The position numbers and the translations under genes are program-made. A DNA stretch of 4,153 bases from a virus (taxonomy: Duplodnaviria > Heunggongvirae > Uroviricota > Caudoviricetes). Shown piece after piece: positions 1 to 4,153 of this stretch. Position 1 is the first letter of the stretch. Each line of letters begins with the position of its first letter. The stretch covers positions 1 through 4,153 of the IMG/VR virus record IMGVR_UViG_2703718873_000011; one strand, 5' to 3'. The notes beneath the pieces are model-generated. The model was not told the origin of the DNA. It saw only the letters and a program-made list of their open reading frames with translations, and did no database searches.

Positions 1-1
1 C

Positions 2-277
2 CTGTTCATTGACGAAATGGCGCATCCGTTACAGCCGGTTCGTCTGTCCGGTGATGAACTTCACGGAGAAGATCCATATTACGTCCTGTACGTCACGCCG
101 CGTCAGTGGAATGACTGGTACACCTCGACGTCCGGTAAGGACTGGAACCAGATGATGGTTCGGGCCGTGAACCGTGCAAAAGGTTTTAATCATCCGCTGT
201 TCAAAGGTGAATGTGCGATGTGGCGCAATATCCTGGTTCGTAAGTATGCGGGTATTATAGCGCGGCGATTTTTTTGA
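2..277 (+). CDS. hypothetical protein, C-terminal fragment (5' end outside window)
   Basis: The frame is open from position 2 (codons L-F-I-D-E precede the ATG at 17 with no in-frame stop) to TGA at 275-277. Codon usage looks E. coli-like (CGT/CTG/CCG-rich). It converges on mom and is followed by a stem-loop at 313-347. No family recognised from sequence alone. Confidence 0.45.
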   Translation: MFIDEMAHPLQPVRLSGDELHGEDPYYVLYVTPRQWNDWYTSTSGKDWNQMMVRAVNRAKGFNHPLFKGECAMWRNILVRKYAGIIARRFF

Positions 278-338
278 TACCGATTTGCATTTCATTTGAT
301 ACCGCTGAAAAACGCCGATACGCAACTTATTTGATACT
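273..338. repeat. Four GATAC-core direct repeats in the intergenic region (TTTGATACC at 273-281 and 295-303, CCGATAC at 314-320, TTTGATAC at 330-337)
   Basis: Seen directly in sequence; spacings between GATAC cores are 22, 18 and 17 bp. The first copy overlaps the stop codon of the left-edge CDS. Function unknown (possible protein-binding sites). Confidence 0.3.
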
Positions 339-347
339 AAATCGGCG
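313..347. terminator. Putative bidirectional terminator-like stem-loop between convergent genes
   Basis: CGCCGAT (313-319) is the exact reverse complement of ATCGGCG (341-347), giving a 7-bp stem. It is flanked by A5 (308-312) upstream and CTTTTCTTTT (348-357) downstream, so a U-tract follows the stem on either strand. The 21-nt loop is longer than in canonical intrinsic terminators, hence low confidence. Confidence 0.3.
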
Positions 348-383
348 CTTTTCTTTTGAGTTTTAGAATGAGTTTTTAAGCGC

Positions 384-1121
384 TCATTCACTCTCTTTCA
401 AACCAGTTTTAACTGTTTGTGGTTTTGGGTAAGGCTGGACTTTGAATAGCTTTGTGTTGAGGCGTTTTCTGGCCCTCTTGTTCAGAAACCGGATGTAACG
501 AAACTGTCGGAACTTATGCACACTGGCTCTGTCGATATTAGCCCTCAGATGTTCACCTCGTTGTCCGCCTCGTTTAATGGCACTCCTGCAAATCTCGTGA
601 TACCACTCGCCATCAAGTTCATAGAATGTTGATTCATGGCTGCCTACATAATCAAAATTGCTTGCCTGATACACGACACCAAGACAGCCACAACGCTCAT
701 CTGCAAACGACTGAACCCACTGTACCTGCGGATAAAGCTGCCTGATTAGCTTGAGCGCGTAACTGATTGCCCTTGATTCGGAGTTTCTCGGCATACAGTC
801 ATGCATCCATAGCCGGTTAAGCTCCATATATTCTCGGTTCTGCGTACCCGTTACGACGCGTGCACCACTGTTTGGGTTAAGGGCGTAACCCCATTGCATT
901 ACGCCAACAAGTTCCCGTTCTGAAAATATACCCAGATGAAGGTAGGAATTATTTACGAAACGGTGGCTGTAATGTTTATTGACGATAACCAGTCTGGCCA
1001 GCCAGCAACTTATTGTCTCAACCCGCAACTCACGGGAGCCATAACCAACGATATTGTCGTTATAGCGAATAAGTTCAGGCGTGCTGATGATACGGGATGT
1101 GACTTGCTTTCTGTTCCCCAC
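384..1121 (-). CDS. mom: Mom-like DNA modification protein (phage Mu Mom family, adenine-modifying, GNAT-like)
   Basis: 245-aa ORF immediately downstream of, and overlapping by 47 nt, a Com-like zinc-finger gene, which is the com-mom operon architecture of phage Mu. Size is close to Mu Mom (about 231 aa). GTG start at 1121-1119 preceded by AAGGAAA 8 nt upstream. The family call rests mainly on context and size; I cannot verify residue-level identity to Mom without a search. Confidence 0.6.
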
Positions 1122-1275
1122 GACAGGATTTCCTTGTGTATGTGGGGTGCTCTGTGGCGCTCGGAGATGTGATTTGATTGAGGGTTTTACAGCGCGGACA
1201 TTTTACTTCCAGATAACTGAAACTGGCCCGTGCCAGTAGCTTATTGCAGTGTCGGCACCGTATGTTTCGATACAT
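1075..1275 (-). CDS. com: Com-like zinc-finger translational activator of mom
   Basis: 66-aa product [30 protein letters not shown]... with C-x2-C at residues 7/10 and C-x2-C at 26/29, matching the phage Mu Com pattern (IRCxxCNKLL ... CPRCK) as I recall it. ATG at 1275-1273 preceded by AGGAGG with 10-nt spacing. TGA stop at 1077-1075 lies inside mom. The TTG at 1320 that opens the track ORF is probably not the real start. Confidence 0.7.
1116..1147 (-). promoter_or_regulatory. Stem-loop sequestering the mom GTG start codon and RBS (candidate translation-inhibitory structure)
   Basis: On the minus-strand mRNA, CCCCAC (from 1147-1142) pairs with GUGGGG (1121-1116), where GUG is the mom start codon. 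The 20-nt loop carries the AAGGAAA Shine-Dalgarno and can form an inner stem (ACAAGG/CCUGU). Complementarity verified by eye; stability not computed. Confidence 0.4.
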
Positions 1276-1320
1276 GGCCGCATAACCTCCTGCTTTGTTG
1301 TTGATGCCTTTCTCATGCAA

Positions 1321-1341
1321 TCGATCGACAAAAACGATCGA
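1321..1341. promoter_or_regulatory. Paired palindromic Dam sites (TCGATCGA ... CGATCGAT) upstream of com
   Basis: GATC at 1323-1326 and 1336-1339, each within a CGATCG palindrome, separated by ACAAAAA; 48-64 bp upstream of the com ATG. Read as analogous to the Dam/OxyR-controlled GATC sites upstream of Mu Pmom, but this is inference. Confidence 0.3.
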
Positions 1342-1440
1342 TTCGATTTGTTTAATTGATACAACAAATAGATTTAAAAGTCATCAACAATGATTCAGGG
1401 CGGTGATTATTTACTTAAAGAAACGAAGAGTTAGGTGGTG

Positions 1441-1462
1441 AAAACGATCATAAAATGATCAT
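1441..1462. promoter_or_regulatory. Second pair of GATC sites in a near-symmetric AT-rich element (AAAACGATCATAAAATGATCATTTT)
   Basis: GATC at 1445-1448 and 1456-1459 within a GATCAT direct repeat flanked by A4/T4; a further GATC at 1492-1495. All in the com / zinc-ribbon intergenic region. Confidence 0.25.
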
Positions 1463-1504
1463 TTTATTGACTTTTTATACAGTGAAGGTAGGATCGCGCG
1501 TATA

Positions 1505-1573
1505 TGTAGTATGTTTCAAATCAACAGGATACTACATAAAAGGGAAACCCAGCATAGCTGGAACTATGCTGGG
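1505..1573 (-). terminator. Tandem perfect hairpins; on the minus strand the second is followed by a U-rich tract (terminator or insulator candidate, alternatively a structured sRNA or operator)
   Basis: Hairpin A: TGTAGTAT (1505-1512) / ATACTACA (1529-1536), 8-bp stem with 16-nt loop. Hairpin B: CCCAGCATAG (1548-1557) / CTATGCTGGG (1564-1573), perfect 10-bp stem with 6-nt loop. On the minus strand hairpin B is followed by UUUCCCUUUUAUG (complement of 1535-1547). Confidence 0.35.
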
Positions 1574-1681
1574 TCAATCTGTAAAAACTTGCATCAATGC
1601 TTTACTTCGAGCTCGTGGCGTATCCTATGATATTCCCCGGTCTCCTGTAAAGCAGAGATGCATAAAAAGGAGATCTTTATC

Positions 1682-1852
1682 ATGGATAAAGAGCCTGTTT
1701 GCCCTGCCTGTAAGACTCCCTTACAGCTCATCTATCGCCGTTCTCGATCTCAAAATGGCAAGACATACAAACCAAAAAATGCTTCCTGTTTCAGGATGCT
1801 GATATGTCCGGCCTGTTCTCCCCGGAGGGAAAATACACAAAACGTGCATTAA
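1682..1852 (+). CDS. Small zinc-ribbon protein (56 aa), putative DNA/RNA-binding regulator
   Basis: ATG at 1682 preceded by AAGGAG (1667-1672) with 9-nt spacing. Product MDKEPVCPACKTPLQLIYRRSRSQNGKTYKPKNASCFRMLICPACSP... has C-x2-C at 7/10 and C-x2-C at 42/45, plus Cys36. Stop TAA at 1850-1852. Transcribed divergently from com. The track ORF at 1658 starts 8 codons earlier with no RBS. Confidence 0.5.
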   Translation: MDKEPVCPACKTPLQLIYRRSRSQNGKTYKPKNASCFRMLICPACSPRRENTQNVH

Positions 1853-1861
1853 CAAATTCAC

Positions 1862-1881
1862 CCGGCAGGGAAACCTGCCGG
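1862..1881. terminator. Putative bidirectional terminator hairpin between convergent genes
   Basis: CCGGCAGG (1862-1869) + GAAA loop + CCTGCCGG (1874-1881), a perfect 8-bp GC-rich stem with tetraloop. It lies 10 nt after the zinc-ribbon stop on plus and 10 nt after the 81-aa ORF stop on minus. Downstream tracts are moderately U-rich on both strands (UCGGUAUUGUU / GUGAAUUUGUU). Confidence 0.45.
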
Positions 1882-1890
1882 TCGGTATTG

Positions 1891-2136
1891 TTACATCATA
1901 GTACCGTCAGTTCCGGGTTGAACCGGCTCTGGTTGCTCTACGGGTTGAGGCTCATTTTCCGTGCTGTTTTCAGCCGGAGAACGACCAACCATTCGGGCCA
2001 GCACTTCATCAACATATGCGTCGATTTGTGCCTCAAAATCCTTGCGAACCTGCGCCTTCAGCACGCGGTTCACTTCTTCAGAATAAAGTGCCTGTTTGAC
2101 AAGCTCTTCAGTAACCGTGCCTTTAATCTCTGGCAT
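1891..2136 (-). CDS. hypothetical small acidic protein (81 aa)
   Basis: ATG at 2136-2134 preceded by AAGGAG with 7-nt spacing; TAA stop at 1893-1891. The N-terminal 50 aa look helical and amphipathic; the C-terminal 30 aa are Pro/Glu/Gln-rich (PQPVEQPEPVQP) and likely disordered. No family recognised. Confidence 0.6.
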   Translation of the reverse strand: MPEIKGTVTEELVKQALYSEEVNRVLKAQVRKDFEAQIDAYVDEVLARMVGRSPAENSTENEPQPVEQPEPVQPGTDGTMM

Positions 2137-2171
2137 GAATATTCTCCTTTCCTTTTCTGGTTCACAAAAAA

Positions 2172-2351
2172 TTAAATCTGACCGGAGTCTTTCGGCTGCG
2201 GCATTACAGCACCGCTTTTTATCTTTTCCTCGGCAGCTGCATCAATTTTATTTCGAAAATAATTGCGAATAATTTTATAACCACCGCTGACAAGCAACAG
2301 ACAACAAACCACCGTGCAGAAATACAGCAGGCAGACGTTTATATATGTCAT
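2172..2351 (-). CDS. Small single-pass membrane peptide (59 aa), not in the supplied ORF track
   Basis: My own translation of the minus strand: ATG at 2351-2349, TAA at 2174-2172, product MTYINVCLLYFCTVVCCLLLVSGGYKIIRNYFRNKIDAAAEEKIKSGAVMPQPKDSGQI. One Cys-rich hydrophobic segment of about 22 residues is followed by a basic then acidic tail (positive-inside topology). GAGG lies 5 nt upstream of the ATG. It fills the otherwise empty 272-bp gap between the esterase gene and the 81-aa ORF. Confidence 0.4.
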   Translation of the reverse strand: MTYINVCLLYFCTVVCCLLLVSGGYKIIRNYFRNKIDAAAEEKIKSGAVMPQPKDSGQI

Positions 2352-2408
2352 ATAAGCCTCACTCTTATTAACTGATGTTACAGCCGGATAAATTCCCGGC
2401 CGTCACGA

Positions 2409-4153
2409 TTATGCCGCAGGGGTATTAACCTCAAGGACAACGCTCTCAAAAGACACGCCATAAGTTGCCCCTTTGGTGACATCTGTCAGTGTCAGCGTAT
2501 CTTTGGCAGGGGAAAGTGCATCTTTCACCATCTGGAATGCCTGGCCCGGAGTGCCATCCAGCACAGGCGTTACCTGGGCACTTCCCGCCGTAAACTTCAG
2601 GACAAGTGTATGCCACTGGTTATTGTAGGCTCCAAATGATCCCAGTTTCGTATTCCCCCCTGTTTTATGGTGCATCAGATTTAACTGGCCGCCTGTTGTC
2701 TGGAGATAATACGCCATCAGGAACGGTGTGCCTGTACCACTCATGGTTACACCTTCCGGGACCGTATCGGTGTGGAGGTAAATACCCAGAGCAAACTGGC
2801 CTTCTTTTACTTCACCTGACAGACGGAATTTACAGGTCAACTGACCACCATGCTTCAGAAGTTCACCGGCTGCATCAGTTCCATGGGTAAGCGTCCAGGT
2901 TTTTCCGCTTTGTTTGGATACGGTCAACGCTTTACCTTCGTCCGTCAGCTGGATTGTACCATCTGTAATTTTCCAGCCCTGAGCCGGGGCTTCTCCTGCT
3001 GATGCTTTAAGTGAAAGCAGCGTACGGAGTGACGGGGATGTCGGATGGGGGGACTCACTGCCTCCTGGCTGACTACCTGTCGGCGCTTCCGGTTTCCCAC
3101 CCGGCGCGGGCTGAGGCAGGGCTTCACCATCAGGGGCCACACCGGCAATAAATGCAGAGGTCAGACCTGCATATTTAAGAATTGCTGATGCAAAACGATC
3201 TGAGACCAGAAAACGGCGCGCCCAGGAGCTAAAATGGGTTGCCCTGGATGCTGTTGTCCAGTTGCCATCTCCCCGTGATTCCGCACCATAATACCCGGCA
3301 GAAGCGATATCCGGGTCGTGCTCCGGCAGGTTGGTCGCGGTTTTATTACCGAACTCATCGTGCATCAGTGGAACAAAGTGAATGTTCTCGGAAGCCCGGT
3401 TTTTATATCCGCTATAAATGGTTTCATATGCCGCCGGGTTCTTCTCTTTCCAGTCATAGGTTGTGTCACCACATAACCACGGCACACTGTCTGATGAACC
3501 ACCAATACACTGACCGGAGAAAGCACCAAGATCCGCACGGAATTTTTTCACCATCGCAGTAAACTGGGCACCATGCTGGGCCGGGGTCGCTTTAAGGTCT
3601 CCTTCCCCCTGAATCCATACGACAGATAACAGCACATTCTTTGGATTCGCCTCAAGTGCCGCTTTAGTTCGACTGACAAGATCCTGATACAGTGGGGTAT
3701 CCACTCCCCAGCGTAGTGACGCCTCGGCTGCACCACTTGCCGGATCGAATGAGCCAACTGCGCCGGTTGTAAAAGCAGAGCCGCCACGGGCACAGGGAAC
3801 CAGTAAAATCCCGGCATCAGCAGGAATCACCGGTAATACTTTTTTCGCAATATGAAGTCCCTGCCCCACACAACCATACTGCCCTTTTTTCAGGTCTGCT
3901 TTTGGATGGTTCAGCAGACTCATATTCTGAACATCATGAAGGCAGTGATCTGCTGGAATGATTTCATTGTATTTGCAGGGAATACCTCCGGGGGTTTGTG
4001 TATTCCTGCGTGCCAGCTGCATAATACGTGGATCAGGACGATCATAAGAATCCGGAAGGGGCAACCCTTCACCATAAGATGAAGCATTGGACTGGCCGGC
4101 TATAACAATCACGTAATACCAGGAAGGGGAGCTGGAAGCAGTTTCATTTCCTG
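2409..4153 (-). CDS. SGNH/SASA-family carbohydrate O-acetylesterase, prophage NanS-p-like (partial; N-terminus outside window), with C-terminal beta-rich putative carbohydrate-binding domain
   Basis: The frame stays open upstream of the GTG at 4112 to the window edge (…GNETASSSPSWYYVIVIAGQSNA…). The GQSN motif after a hydrophobic beta-strand is the block-I signature of SASA/DUF303 sialate O-acetylesterases. A Pro/Ser/Gly-rich linker (PQPAPGGKPEAPTGSQPGGSESPHPTSPS) precedes a C-terminal domain of about 200 aa. At least 581 aa are visible, consistent with prophage NanS-p proteins of roughly 645 aa that carry an extra N-terminal domain (from memory). TAA stop at 2411-2409. Confidence 0.8.
   Translation of the reverse strand, partial: GNETASSSPSWYYVIVIAGQSNASSYGEGLPLPDSYDRPDPRIMQLARRNTQTPGGIPCKYNEIIPADHCLHDVQNMSLLNHPKADLKKGQYGCVGQGLHIAKKVLPVIPADAGILLVPCARGGSAFTTGAVGSFDPASGAAEASLRWGVDTPLYQDLVSRTKAALEANPKNVLLSVVWIQGEGDLKATPAQHGAQFTAMVKKFRADLGAFSGQCIGGSSDSVPWLCGDTTYDWKEKNPAAYETIYSGYKNRASENIHFVPLMHDEFGNKTATNLPEHDPDIASAGYYGAESRGDGNWTTASRATHFSSWARRFLVSDRFASAILKYAGLTSAFIAGVAPDGEALPQPAPGGKPEAPTGSQPGGSESPHPTSPSLRTLLSLKASAGEAPAQGWKITDGTIQLTDEGKALTVSKQSGKTWTLTHGTDAAGELLKHGGQLTCKFRLSGEVKEGQFALGIYLHTDTVPEGVTMSGTGTPFLMAYYLQTTGGQLNLMHHKTGGNTKLGSFGAYNNQWHTLVLKFTAGSAQVTPVLDGTPGQAFQMVKDALSPAKDTLTLTDVTKGATYGVSFESVVLEVNTPAA

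Follow-up and report, generated by a model that had tools for sequence, protein, structure and literature searches.

We propose, tentatively and at slightly less than even probability, that the 406-bp interval 1276-1681 upstream of com is a composite, non-coding, divergent control region, in which a segment for com-mom control is combined with an outward promoter, its folded leader and a terminator-like hairpin. The interval belongs to the window, i.e. the whole 4,153-nt stretch analysed here (positions 1 to 4,153 of the IMG/VR record IMGVR_UViG_2703718873_000011), which represents the right end of an Sp18-type Mu-like prophage of E. coli. The predicted outward promoter and the mom-type GATC sites had not been seen in the initial annotation, and they change the most likely reading of the interval. 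Sp18-type prophages of pathogenic E. coli possess the com-mom operon of Mu, but with a different and much longer upstream region, in which a putative divergent promoter, additional Dam sites and a terminator-like hairpin are present. Expression of mom at the wrong time is lethal, and few genes of bacterial viruses are known to be as heavily guarded as mom in Mu. Should the added parts work as proposed, they would provide extra layers of insulation for a toxic gene that adjoins imported cargo. Each part of the interval belongs to a familiar class, and the general understanding of such elements is unchanged.

Genes around the interval

The interval is flanked by the following genes and elements:

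384-1121, minus strand: mom, adenine-modification enzyme, 245 aa (Pfam PF25680 Mom, E 8.5e-77; RefSeq "protein mom")
1075-1275, minus strand: com, zinc-ribbon translational activator of mom, 66 aa (Pfam PF10122 Zn_ribbon_Com, E 2e-12)
1682-1852, plus strand: CPAC...CPAC zinc-ribbon ORF, 56 aa (Shine-Dalgarno sequence AAGGAG, 1667-1672)
1862-1881, no strand assigned: 8-bp GC-rich hairpin that separates the converging zinc-ribbon ORF and DUF826 gene

The com product is 46% identical to Com of Mu, its Shine-Dalgarno sequence is AGGAGG (1286-1291), and its ORF shares positions 1075-1121 with that of mom, so that com overlaps the mom start. The zinc-ribbon ORF is an orphan, whose homologues are exclusively near-identical copies from E. 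coli; its Pfam matches are weak, and no informative homologues were found. The hairpin at 1862-1881 is terminator-like in both directions (folds of -17.1 and -18.3 kcal/mol), with weak T-tracts. A DNA search against phages matched only two Stx-phage records with the same Mu-like insert, and none of the matches was to Mu.

Hairpins and folding of the interval

Three hairpins were found in the part of the interval distal to com:

1503-1512/1529-1538, no strand assigned: hairpin 1, perfect 10-bp stem, 16-nt loop (inverted-repeat search and folds)
1547-1557/1564-1574, no strand assigned: hairpin 2, perfect 11-bp stem, 6-nt loop (inverted-repeat search)
1590-1605/1647-1662, no strand assigned: hairpin 3, imperfect 27-pair stem-loop (inverted-repeat search and folds)

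The two perfect tandem hairpins of the initial annotation are indeed present, with stems slightly longer than described there (10 bp rather than 8, and 11 bp rather than 10), and so is the U-rich tract that it placed after hairpin 2 on the minus strand, TTCCCTTTTATGTAG (1546->1532). Hairpin 3, two GATC palindromes, a 115-aa plus-strand ORF and the outward promoter in front of the hairpins had been missed.

Both the fold and the inverted repeats of the interval exceed chance. When 1276-1681 was dinucleotide-shuffled, 20 of 2000 shuffles contained a perfect inverted repeat with arms of 10 bp or more and a loop of up to 20 nt; inverted repeats of at least 8 bp number nine against 0.19 expected. 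The folding z-score is -5.0 (plus strand) and -5.8 (minus strand) for 1400-1685 and -5.9 and -6.4 for 1501-1685, with 0 of 200 shuffles equally stable for either segment. The energies of the hairpins reveal no consistent strand preference. In a scan of Rfam 15 no family reached its gathering score (best in the interval: tsr24, 19.9 bits against a threshold of 50, E 0.22), and a tRNA/tmRNA scan of the whole window returned none.

The probable com-mom control region

The com-proximal part of the interval and the adjoining GATC sites comprise:

1276-~1400, minus strand: probable com-mom promoter/control region, near-invariant in 16/16 variants including M18 (alignments)
1319-1343, no strand assigned: GATC palindrome AATCGATCG-N7-CGATCGATT, Dam sites GATC at 1323 and 1336
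1441-1465, no strand assigned: second GATC palindrome AAAACGATCAT-AAA-ATGATCATTTT, GATC at 1446 and 1457

The mean pairwise difference over 1276-1400 is 0.00-0.04. In Mu, Pmom is equipped with a Dam/OxyR GATC cluster, the activator C and the divergent promoter momP2 (PMC3378877). We suggest that 1276-~1400 would serve as the control region of com-mom, with a Dam-site palindrome that corresponds in position to the GATC cluster by which transcription of mom is controlled in Mu. The sites at 1323 and 1336 are 13 nt apart and lie 51 and 64 nt from the com ATG, and the spacing in phage Chuche is identical (51/64/82). A GATC triplet spaced by 18-19 and 13 nt is present in Mu, in Chuche and in six com-mom loci of other species; two of the three sites remain upstream of com in the window, the distal one being mutated. 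Among Mom-anchored loci from 21 other species, the palindrome at 1319-1343 is the only part of the interval that recurs, so that the hairpin module is restricted to prophages of E. coli. GATC is enriched in the interval, which contains six of the 16 sites of the window within 406 bp (P = 0.003), five of them within 178 bp (P = 0.0004). The homologue of C in Sp18 is ECs_4961; inspection by eye of five Sp18 late-gene upstream regions revealed no obvious shared activator motif.

A predicted outward promoter and its leader

Beyond the control region, the promoter scan identified a candidate directed away from com:

1467-1494, plus strand: predicted sigma-70-like promoter TTGACT-16 nt-TAGGAT (9/12 matches)

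According to this prediction, a sigma-70-type promoter within 1441-1500 would fire away from com, flanked or overlapped by three further Dam sites. The second GATC palindrome lies at approximately -55/-44 relative to the predicted plus-strand start (~1501), and GATC 1492-1495 overlaps the -10 hexamer. The outward promoter is the best-conserved element in the comparison with M18, the one divergent lineage: the UP/-35 block is identical at 20/22 positions (91%), the spacer at 8/16 (50%), and the -10 hexamer with the discriminator at 11/12 (92%), the M18 -10 sequence being TACGATCG. The block 1451-1472 is likewise 91% identical in M18. The region has no excess of promoter-like matches (2, with 2.9 expected), so that the prediction rests on this footprint against a single divergent lineage. 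A search of the literature and of datasets (Sp18, ECs4996-4998, Term-seq, sRNA lists) retrieved no paper or dataset on the interval and no transcript start or end mapped in it.

Positions 1501-1662 would then constitute the leader of the outward transcript, of ~180 nt and with all three hairpins, and this segment is conserved where the ORF that follows it differs from one prophage to another. Homology between the prophages ends at ~1662, the end of hairpin 3, and is followed by three unrelated ORFs, each of which starts ~20 nt further; in L005 and L006 different downstream genes replace the zinc-ribbon ORF. Hairpin 1 begins 1-2 nt past the predicted start. A hairpin in such a position is known to protect E. 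coli mRNAs from 5'-end-dependent decay.

Variation of the hairpins among prophages

Hairpin 1 is kept in all E. coli variants but those of the M18 lineage, where the left arm has undergone a 16-nt deletion. Hairpin 2 occurs as alleles A, B and C, and the stem persists in each of them, with two double compensations as well as a compensated indel in type C. Pairing in hairpin 2 is preserved through compensatory changes; the covariation of hairpin 3 (93% of cells paired, only one compensatory pair) does not go beyond that of shuffles. Identity to M18 amounts to 40% for hairpin 1, 52% for hairpin 2 and 77% for hairpin 3. The minimum-energy fold of the M18 plus strand retains hairpin-2-like and hairpin-3 stems, whereas that of the minus strand does not; the homologous M18 region as a whole has no significant structure (z -0.6 and +1.0).

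In six alleles of hairpin 2 the wobbles at the stem base (A.C on the plus strand, equivalent to G.U on the minus strand) favour the minus strand, on which 12-13 pairs are kept, with three mismatched cells against eight on the plus strand. The clues to the strand whose RNA would matter are in conflict, the wobble pairs favouring minus and M18 favouring plus.

The variation is concentrated in one segment:

1536-1595, no strand assigned: divergence hot spot formed by hairpin 2 and its flank (mean pairwise difference 0.17-0.25 versus 0.01-0.06 in the flanks)

In some prophages (L006, L036, L038 and L042) the unit that extends from hairpin 1 (right arm) to hairpin 3 (left arm) has undergone tandem duplication (79 nt). 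Pattern scans of metagenomes and viral sequences added few new alleles, and five metagenome matches were unrelated. The prophage L043 carries a deletion from 1410 through most of the following plus-strand ORF, from which it follows that the module is dispensable for prophage carriage. We considered this module-free locus as a possible ancestral state and rejected it: its state is secondary, the result of a deletion between two direct repeats of 8 bp by which the neighbouring ORF was truncated too.

Hairpin 2 as a possible transcription terminator

On the minus strand the terminator scan assigns to hairpin 2 a stem of 13 pairs (6 G-C) and a 4-nt loop, with a folding energy of -21.4 kcal/mol (z -5.6; stem estimates -18 to -21 kcal/mol). 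It is followed by the tail TTCCCTTTTAT (1546->1536), which points towards com. In a TransTerm-style tail score computed with our own script, the tail of the window, UUCCCUUUUAU, obtains 3.4-4.0; values calculated by hand with the same formula are ~2.1-2.4 for allele B, which is below the usual threshold, and ~2.7 for allele C, which is borderline, and M18 has no U-tract. The suggestion made in the initial annotation, that an intrinsic terminator shields com-mom, is plausible for the window allele in view of its stem and tail score; the T-tract is weak in alleles B and C and absent in M18. The nearest minus-strand gene upstream of com, the DUF826 gene ending at 1891, already has its own terminator-like hairpin at 1862-1881.

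These features could also be taken to mean that the whole module is an insulator: the hairpins would matter only on the minus strand, where hairpin 2 and its T-tract would block cargo read-through or antisense transcription into the lethal com-mom, and the plus-strand promoter and leader would have no function of their own. The match in the terminator scan and the 12-13 minus-strand pairs maintained by the stem-base wobbles are in line with such a role, and mom is cytotoxic and under multiple guards in Mu (PMC3378877). In phage Chuche a clear terminator precedes com by 121 nt, but most com-mom loci of other genera show no upstream terminator. Moreover, no minus-strand gene ends just upstream of hairpin 2, the T-tract varies between alleles as described above, and hairpins 1 and 3 as well as the conserved promoter hexamers are left unexplained. 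We regard a pure insulator as rather unlikely. In the composite control region that we favour, termination is one of several predicted activities: with the T-rich tail on the opposite strand, hairpin 2 of the window allele would probably also stop RNA polymerase from the cargo side before it reached the toxic com-mom.

Possible small RNAs or DNA-level palindromes

The initial annotation had also mentioned a small structured RNA. A minus-strand RNA of ~78 nt, started from TTTACA-18-TAGGAT (1651->1622) and terminated by hairpin 2, could be an antisense partner of the plus-strand leader, with the cargo ORF or com-mom under its control. Alternatively, a stable regulatory RNA could be processed from the plus-strand leader. 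The arrangement of a promoter-like site followed ~70 nt on by a terminator-like hairpin is the usual layout of Hfq-type sRNAs, and the hypervariable, tandemly duplicated hairpin-2 unit might be compared with the specificity regions of antisense systems. Against this, the minus-strand -10 hexamer loses its key A in M18 (TCGGAT), where the terminator is absent as well, no Rfam family matches (best E 0.22, see above), and the downstream ORF is variable and does not resemble a typical small hydrophobic toxin. The list of Hfq-crosslinking sRNA candidates of strain Sakai (supplement of Tree et al. 2014; one strain, one set of conditions) contains none from the interval. The sole candidate assigned to Sp18 is EcOnc37, found elsewhere, in the ECs4993/ECs4994 spacer ~1 kb away (old coordinates 5077340-5077410). 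In our opinion a small regulatory RNA is improbable. We give equally little credence to the more specific idea that the hairpin-2 unit, which is hypervariable, shows compensation and occurs singly or as a tandem pair, could be the fast-evolving specificity cassette of an antisense RNA pair composed of the plus-strand leader and the ~78-nt minus-strand RNA. If true, it would imply prophage-specific control of the cargo ORF or of the entry of transcription into com-mom, and a regulatory RNA module of Mu-like prophages that has not been described before.

It is just as doubtful that the repeats act at the DNA level, as sites for a dimeric regulator or as cruciform or recombination-prone sequence, rather than as RNA structures. 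In the window, hairpins 1 and 2 are palindromes paired perfectly by Watson-Crick rules, and their energies favour neither strand. Indels, duplication and deletion have a hot spot in the region, and the example of Dam/OxyR at the mom gene of Mu (PMC3378877) makes the GATC palindromes plausible sites for proteins. The palindromic operator proposed in the initial annotation is, however, unsupported for hairpin 2: from allele to allele its arms differ in sequence but remain complementary, which would not be expected of a fixed operator unless the regulator co-varied. The half-site spacing in hairpin 1 (26 bp centre to centre) would be atypical for a dimeric operator.

Coding potential of the interval

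The initial annotation found no convincing ORF in the interval. This is right in substance, albeit not evident from a list of ORFs, which includes a plus-strand ORF of 115 aa (1455-1802). PGAP treats it as part of a frameshifted pseudogene (1391-1853), whose counterpart in O157:H7 is annotated in RefSeq/PGAP as an intact 154-aa protein, ECs_4996. A decaying or young gene of this type (ECs_4996/phrog_26524), with hairpins that are incidental in a frameshifted CDS, would account for the PHROG family match of the ORF (E 2.5e-52) and for open frames of 99-154 codons in 7/16 variants, which is unusual for AT-rich DNA. The comparison of variants argues against such a gene. From the ATG at 1391 the window encodes only 14 aa, and across the 16 variants the ORF is 14, 15, 17, 56, 82, 99, 106, 135 or 154 aa long; most variants have frame-breaking indels, and the C-termini are inconsistent, reading the zinc-ribbon gene in differing frames. 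Substitution in the ORF is neutral: variable sites are distributed over the codon positions as 43/43/41, without a third-position excess, and there are 11 synonymous versus 31 non-synonymous changes, where 21-25% synonymous changes are expected by chance. The ORF is absent from M18, all 36 database matches are E. coli copies of the same locus (at least 78% identity), the N-terminal part matches no family in Pfam, and the conserved promoter would fall within the ORF. Judged by these comparisons of sequence, the interval 1276-1681 is non-coding, and a protein-coding origin of the hairpins is improbable. Most likely, the "hypothetical protein" ECs_4996 and its RefSeq/PHROG relatives are not proteins, and we suggest that their annotation should be corrected. 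On the minus strand, a small ORF of 29 aa (1683->1594) followed by the terminator was rejected after alignment to M18, where the frame and the product differ.

Comparison with known systems

The closest counterpart of the interval is the mom control region of Mu. Both belong to the right end of a Mu-type prophage and immediately precede com and mom genes that overlap, both have a GATC pair 13 nt apart, whose position and spacing are common to com-mom operons, and the divergent promoter predicted here has its parallel in momP2, upstream of Pmom (PMC3378877). The segment 1276-1400 is similar in length to the gin-com spacer of Mu together with the OxyR site. However, the gin-com spacer of Mu is 94 nt long and without hairpins, as opposed to 406 nt in the Sp18-type prophage, and the two regions have no detectable similarity at the DNA level. 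The third GATC is lacking in the window, and the proximal GATC is 78 nt from the com ATG in Mu versus 51 nt here, which implies that the promoter geometry cannot be identical. The divergent promoter of Mu overlaps Pmom, while the one predicted here is ~200 bp away.

Hairpin 2 shares with the intrinsic-terminator insulators of phages a GC-containing stem of 11-13 bp, a short loop and a T-rich tract leading into a tightly controlled operon. It differs from them in that the T-tract is broken by CCC and not conserved among alleles, and in that there is no gene immediately upstream on the minus strand. With stem-loop stabilisers of the ompA type the interval has in common a stable hairpin within ~2 nt of the plus-strand 5' end; here this end is a predicted one, and the M18 lineage is without hairpin 1.

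Finally, the predicted outward sigma-70-like promoter, the small ORF with its own Shine-Dalgarno sequence and the hairpin at 1862-1881 resemble a phage moron cassette, situated between the cargo block and com-mom and with an ORF that varies among related prophages. Phage morons typically move as a whole, whereas here the putative promoter and the 180-nt structured leader are conserved and the ORF is swapped.

Prophage setting and genes

The window is the right end of an Sp18-type Mu-like prophage of E. coli. Part of it is matched by 546 E. coli records (543 genomes), mostly from ~255 on; because these matches begin at 240–256 with a host flank that differs each time, we place the prophage end at ~255. 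Positions 1–277 hold the 3' end of an unrelated ORF, and just inside the prophage end the word TTTGATACY occurs three times (at 273, 295 and 330; 0.07 expected by chance); these repeats (273–338) are probably transposase-binding sites of the right end. The counterpart in Sakai O157:H7 is prophage Sp18, from ECs_4992 (invertase) to ECs_4998 (mom), and the only phage-database matches to 1200–1900 are two Stx-phage records annotated with an inserted "Bacteriophage Mu-like phage". The genes are:

384–1121, minus strand: mom (Pfam)
1075–1275, minus strand: com (Pfam)
1682–1852, plus strand, opposite to com-mom: small zinc-ribbon ORF
1891–4112, minus strand, upstream of com-mom: DUF826, DUF1378 and DUF6645 proteins (Pfam and PGAP names)

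The last of these entries is a cargo block between the invertase and com-mom, in which the DUF6645 protein carries a QSNASSYGEG motif; the trio presumably adjoins lysis genes of Stx/lambdoid prophages (NanS-p-type esterase region).

We tentatively read the 406-bp interval between com and the zinc-ribbon ORF (1276–1681) as a composite divergent control region. Four parts would make it up: a mom-type control region carrying Dam sites, a sigma-70 promoter that faces outward and has further Dam sites, a folded leader of ~180 nt kept ahead of interchangeable small ORFs, and hairpin 2, which in this allele would probably double as a com-ward terminator.

Hairpins and their variation

The two tandem hairpins seen in the initial annotation are present and slightly longer than described there; the remaining elements are additional to it:

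1319–1343: GATC palindrome
1441–1465: GATC palindrome
1503–1512/1529–1538: hairpin 1, 10 bp
1547–1557/1564–1574: hairpin 2, 11 bp
1590–1662: hairpin 3, imperfect, 27 pairs

Perfect inverted repeats of such size arise in ~1% of dinucleotide shuffles of the interval, and both strands fold 5–6 standard deviations better than the shuffles. The interval holds 6 of the window's 16 GATC sites (P = 0.003), five GATC sites falling inside 178 bp (P = 0.0004).

Throughout the main lineage hairpin 1 does not vary; strain M18, the single divergent lineage, has lost it by a 16-nt deletion. Hairpin 2 lies in a local divergence hot spot (mean pairwise difference 0.17–0.25, versus 0.01–0.06 in the flanks) and occurs in the following forms:

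Allele A (window): ACCCAGCATAG / CTGGAA / CTATGCTGGGT
Allele B: one bulge, loop CGCGAA
Allele C: GGTCCAGATAG / TTACAG / CTATCTGGACC, perfect 11-bp stem
M18 form: looser

The allele C stem arises by two double compensations and a compensated indel. Hairpin 2 thus keeps its pairing and not its sequence, which argues for a structural role and speaks against a fixed palindromic operator, one of the roles proposed earlier. A 79-nt unit that begins with the right arm of hairpin 1 and ends with the left arm of hairpin 3 (equivalent to ~1531–1612) is tandemly duplicated in four of the compared prophage loci (L006, L036, L038 and L042), where the copies have diverged; alleles with one copy appear to have arisen by recombination among two hairpin types and two flank types. 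Across eight variants 93% of hairpin 3 is paired, and its covariation amounts to one compensatory pair, not beyond shuffles.

Putative outward promoter and exchangeable module

The promoter scan and the comparison with M18 identified conserved plus-strand hexamers, TTGACT-16-TAGGAT. Identity to M18 varies sharply by element:

UP/-35 block, 1451–1472: 91%
Promoter spacer: 50%
-10 plus discriminator, 1489–1500: 92%
Hairpin 1: 40%
Hairpin 2: 52%
Hairpin 3: 77%

The -10 has an overlapping GATC in the main lineage as well as in M18 (TAGGATCG and TACGATCG), and the predicted start at ~1501 lies 1–2 nt ahead of hairpin 1. Judged by this footprint from one divergent lineage, the putative promoter is the best-supported functional element of its module; the scan found no overall enrichment of promoter-like matches in the region.

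The module, 1410–1662, is a separate unit. Its divergence in M18 is 26%, against near-identity of com and the first 125 upstream bases. In L043 as compared with L032, 391 nt were deleted between direct repeats of 8 bp (AGGTGATT), which removed all of the module (from ~1410 onward) together with most of an adjacent 45-aa ORF. Beyond ~1662 homology stops, and three unrelated ORFs, in different prophages, start ~20 nt further.

Coding potential

RefSeq annotates here a 154-aa hypothetical protein in O157:H7 (ECs_4996, NC_002695.2 5078126–5078590, WP_115801860; matching PHROG family phrog_26524) and, in genomes identical to the window, a frameshifted pseudogene at 1391–1853. The initial annotation had found no convincing ORF, and this held after testing. 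The ORF from the ATG at 1391 ranges from 14 to 154 aa among 16 distinct variants, and its C-terminus is either an in-frame fusion to the zinc-ribbon ORF or that ORF read out of frame. Its variable sites are spread evenly over codon positions (43/43/41), and its substitutions outside the hot spot appear neutral (11 synonymous versus 31 non-synonymous; 21–25% synonymous expected without selection). M18 (74% identity) has no counterpart, and the 36 database "homologues" all represent this one locus, with at least 78% identity. Every carrier keeps the zinc-ribbon start, either as MDKEPVC or as MKEPVC. We take the interval to be non-coding and the long ORF to be the product of two 1-nt indels, with the caveat that the open frame is unusually long in some variants; ECs_4996/phrog_26524 looks like an annotation artefact in which these indels fuse non-coding DNA to the zinc-ribbon ORF.

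Strand, possible termination and expression

The indications of strand diverge. Where the plus strand has A.C mismatches at the hairpin 2 base, the minus strand forms G.U pairs, and six alleles have 3 mismatched cells on minus versus 8 on plus, which favours minus; M18 keeps hairpin-2-like and hairpin-3 stems on the plus strand only, and hairpin 3 has two G.U pairs on that strand, which favours plus. Per-hairpin energies show no consistent strand preference.

An intrinsic terminator before com-mom, as suggested earlier, fits this allele: on the minus strand hairpin 2 (-21.4 kcal/mol) is followed by a T-rich tail, UUCCCUUUUAU, which passes a TransTerm-style score (3.4–4.0), and the site also appears in the terminator scan. 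The idea is weakened by the poorer tails of alleles B and C (~2.1–2.7, hand calculation), by the absence of a T-tract at hairpin 2 in M18, by the nearest upstream minus-strand gene having its own hairpin at its end (1862–1881), and by other com-mom loci being mostly without an upstream terminator. The main rival to the composite reading, in which the hairpins serve purely as an insulator, we consider less likely.

We found no published experimental data on the interval itself. An RNA-seq/RIBO-seq supplement shows both transcription and translation of com (ECs4997) in the Sakai lysogen in ordinary growth, with RNA RPKM 82–178 and ribosome-footprint RPKM up to 727 (the latter in LB). Upstream, ECs4994 has RNA RPKM 23–45; the higher level of com fits, indirectly, a nearby promoter rather than read-through. 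One would not expect com to be transcribed and strongly translated in this way, as it belongs to a late operon under tight silencing. Of the sRNA candidates with Hfq crosslinking that are listed for Sakai, one is assigned to Sp18: EcOnc37, in the ECs4993/ECs4994 spacer (Tree et al. 2014). It coincides with a terminator-like hairpin on the strand opposite to the cargo genes; this spacer measures 146 nt in Sakai and 57 nt in the window (~2351–2409).

Comparison with other com-mom loci

Every part of the composite region proposed here is of a known class; the new details are how the parts are arranged, a hairpin unit that is hypervariable and duplicates, and the misannotation of the ORF. From 1276 to ~1400 the sequence is near-invariant across variants, M18 included. 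The GATC palindrome in this mom control region is flanked by a 23-nt imperfect inverted repeat (78%; 1289–1311/1377–1399) with recurring TTGTTG/CAACAA words; the arms of the repeat could be regulator sites. Immediately upstream of com, phage Chuche has a toxin gene of MokW-like (hok) type with a strong terminator (L008 2125–2265); therefore the slot upstream of com-mom there holds a different small cassette. The palindrome at 1319–1343, AATCGATCG-N7-CGATCGATT, is the sole part of the interval detected outside E. coli. Its two GATCs lie 51 and 64 nt from the com ATG, matching the spacing in Chuche (51/64/82), and a GATC triplet with 18–19 and 13 nt spacing occurs in Mu and six com-mom loci of other species. 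The Mu cluster serves as the Dam/OxyR switch of Pmom, a promoter that in addition requires the activator C and with which the divergent promoter momP2 competes (PMC3378877).
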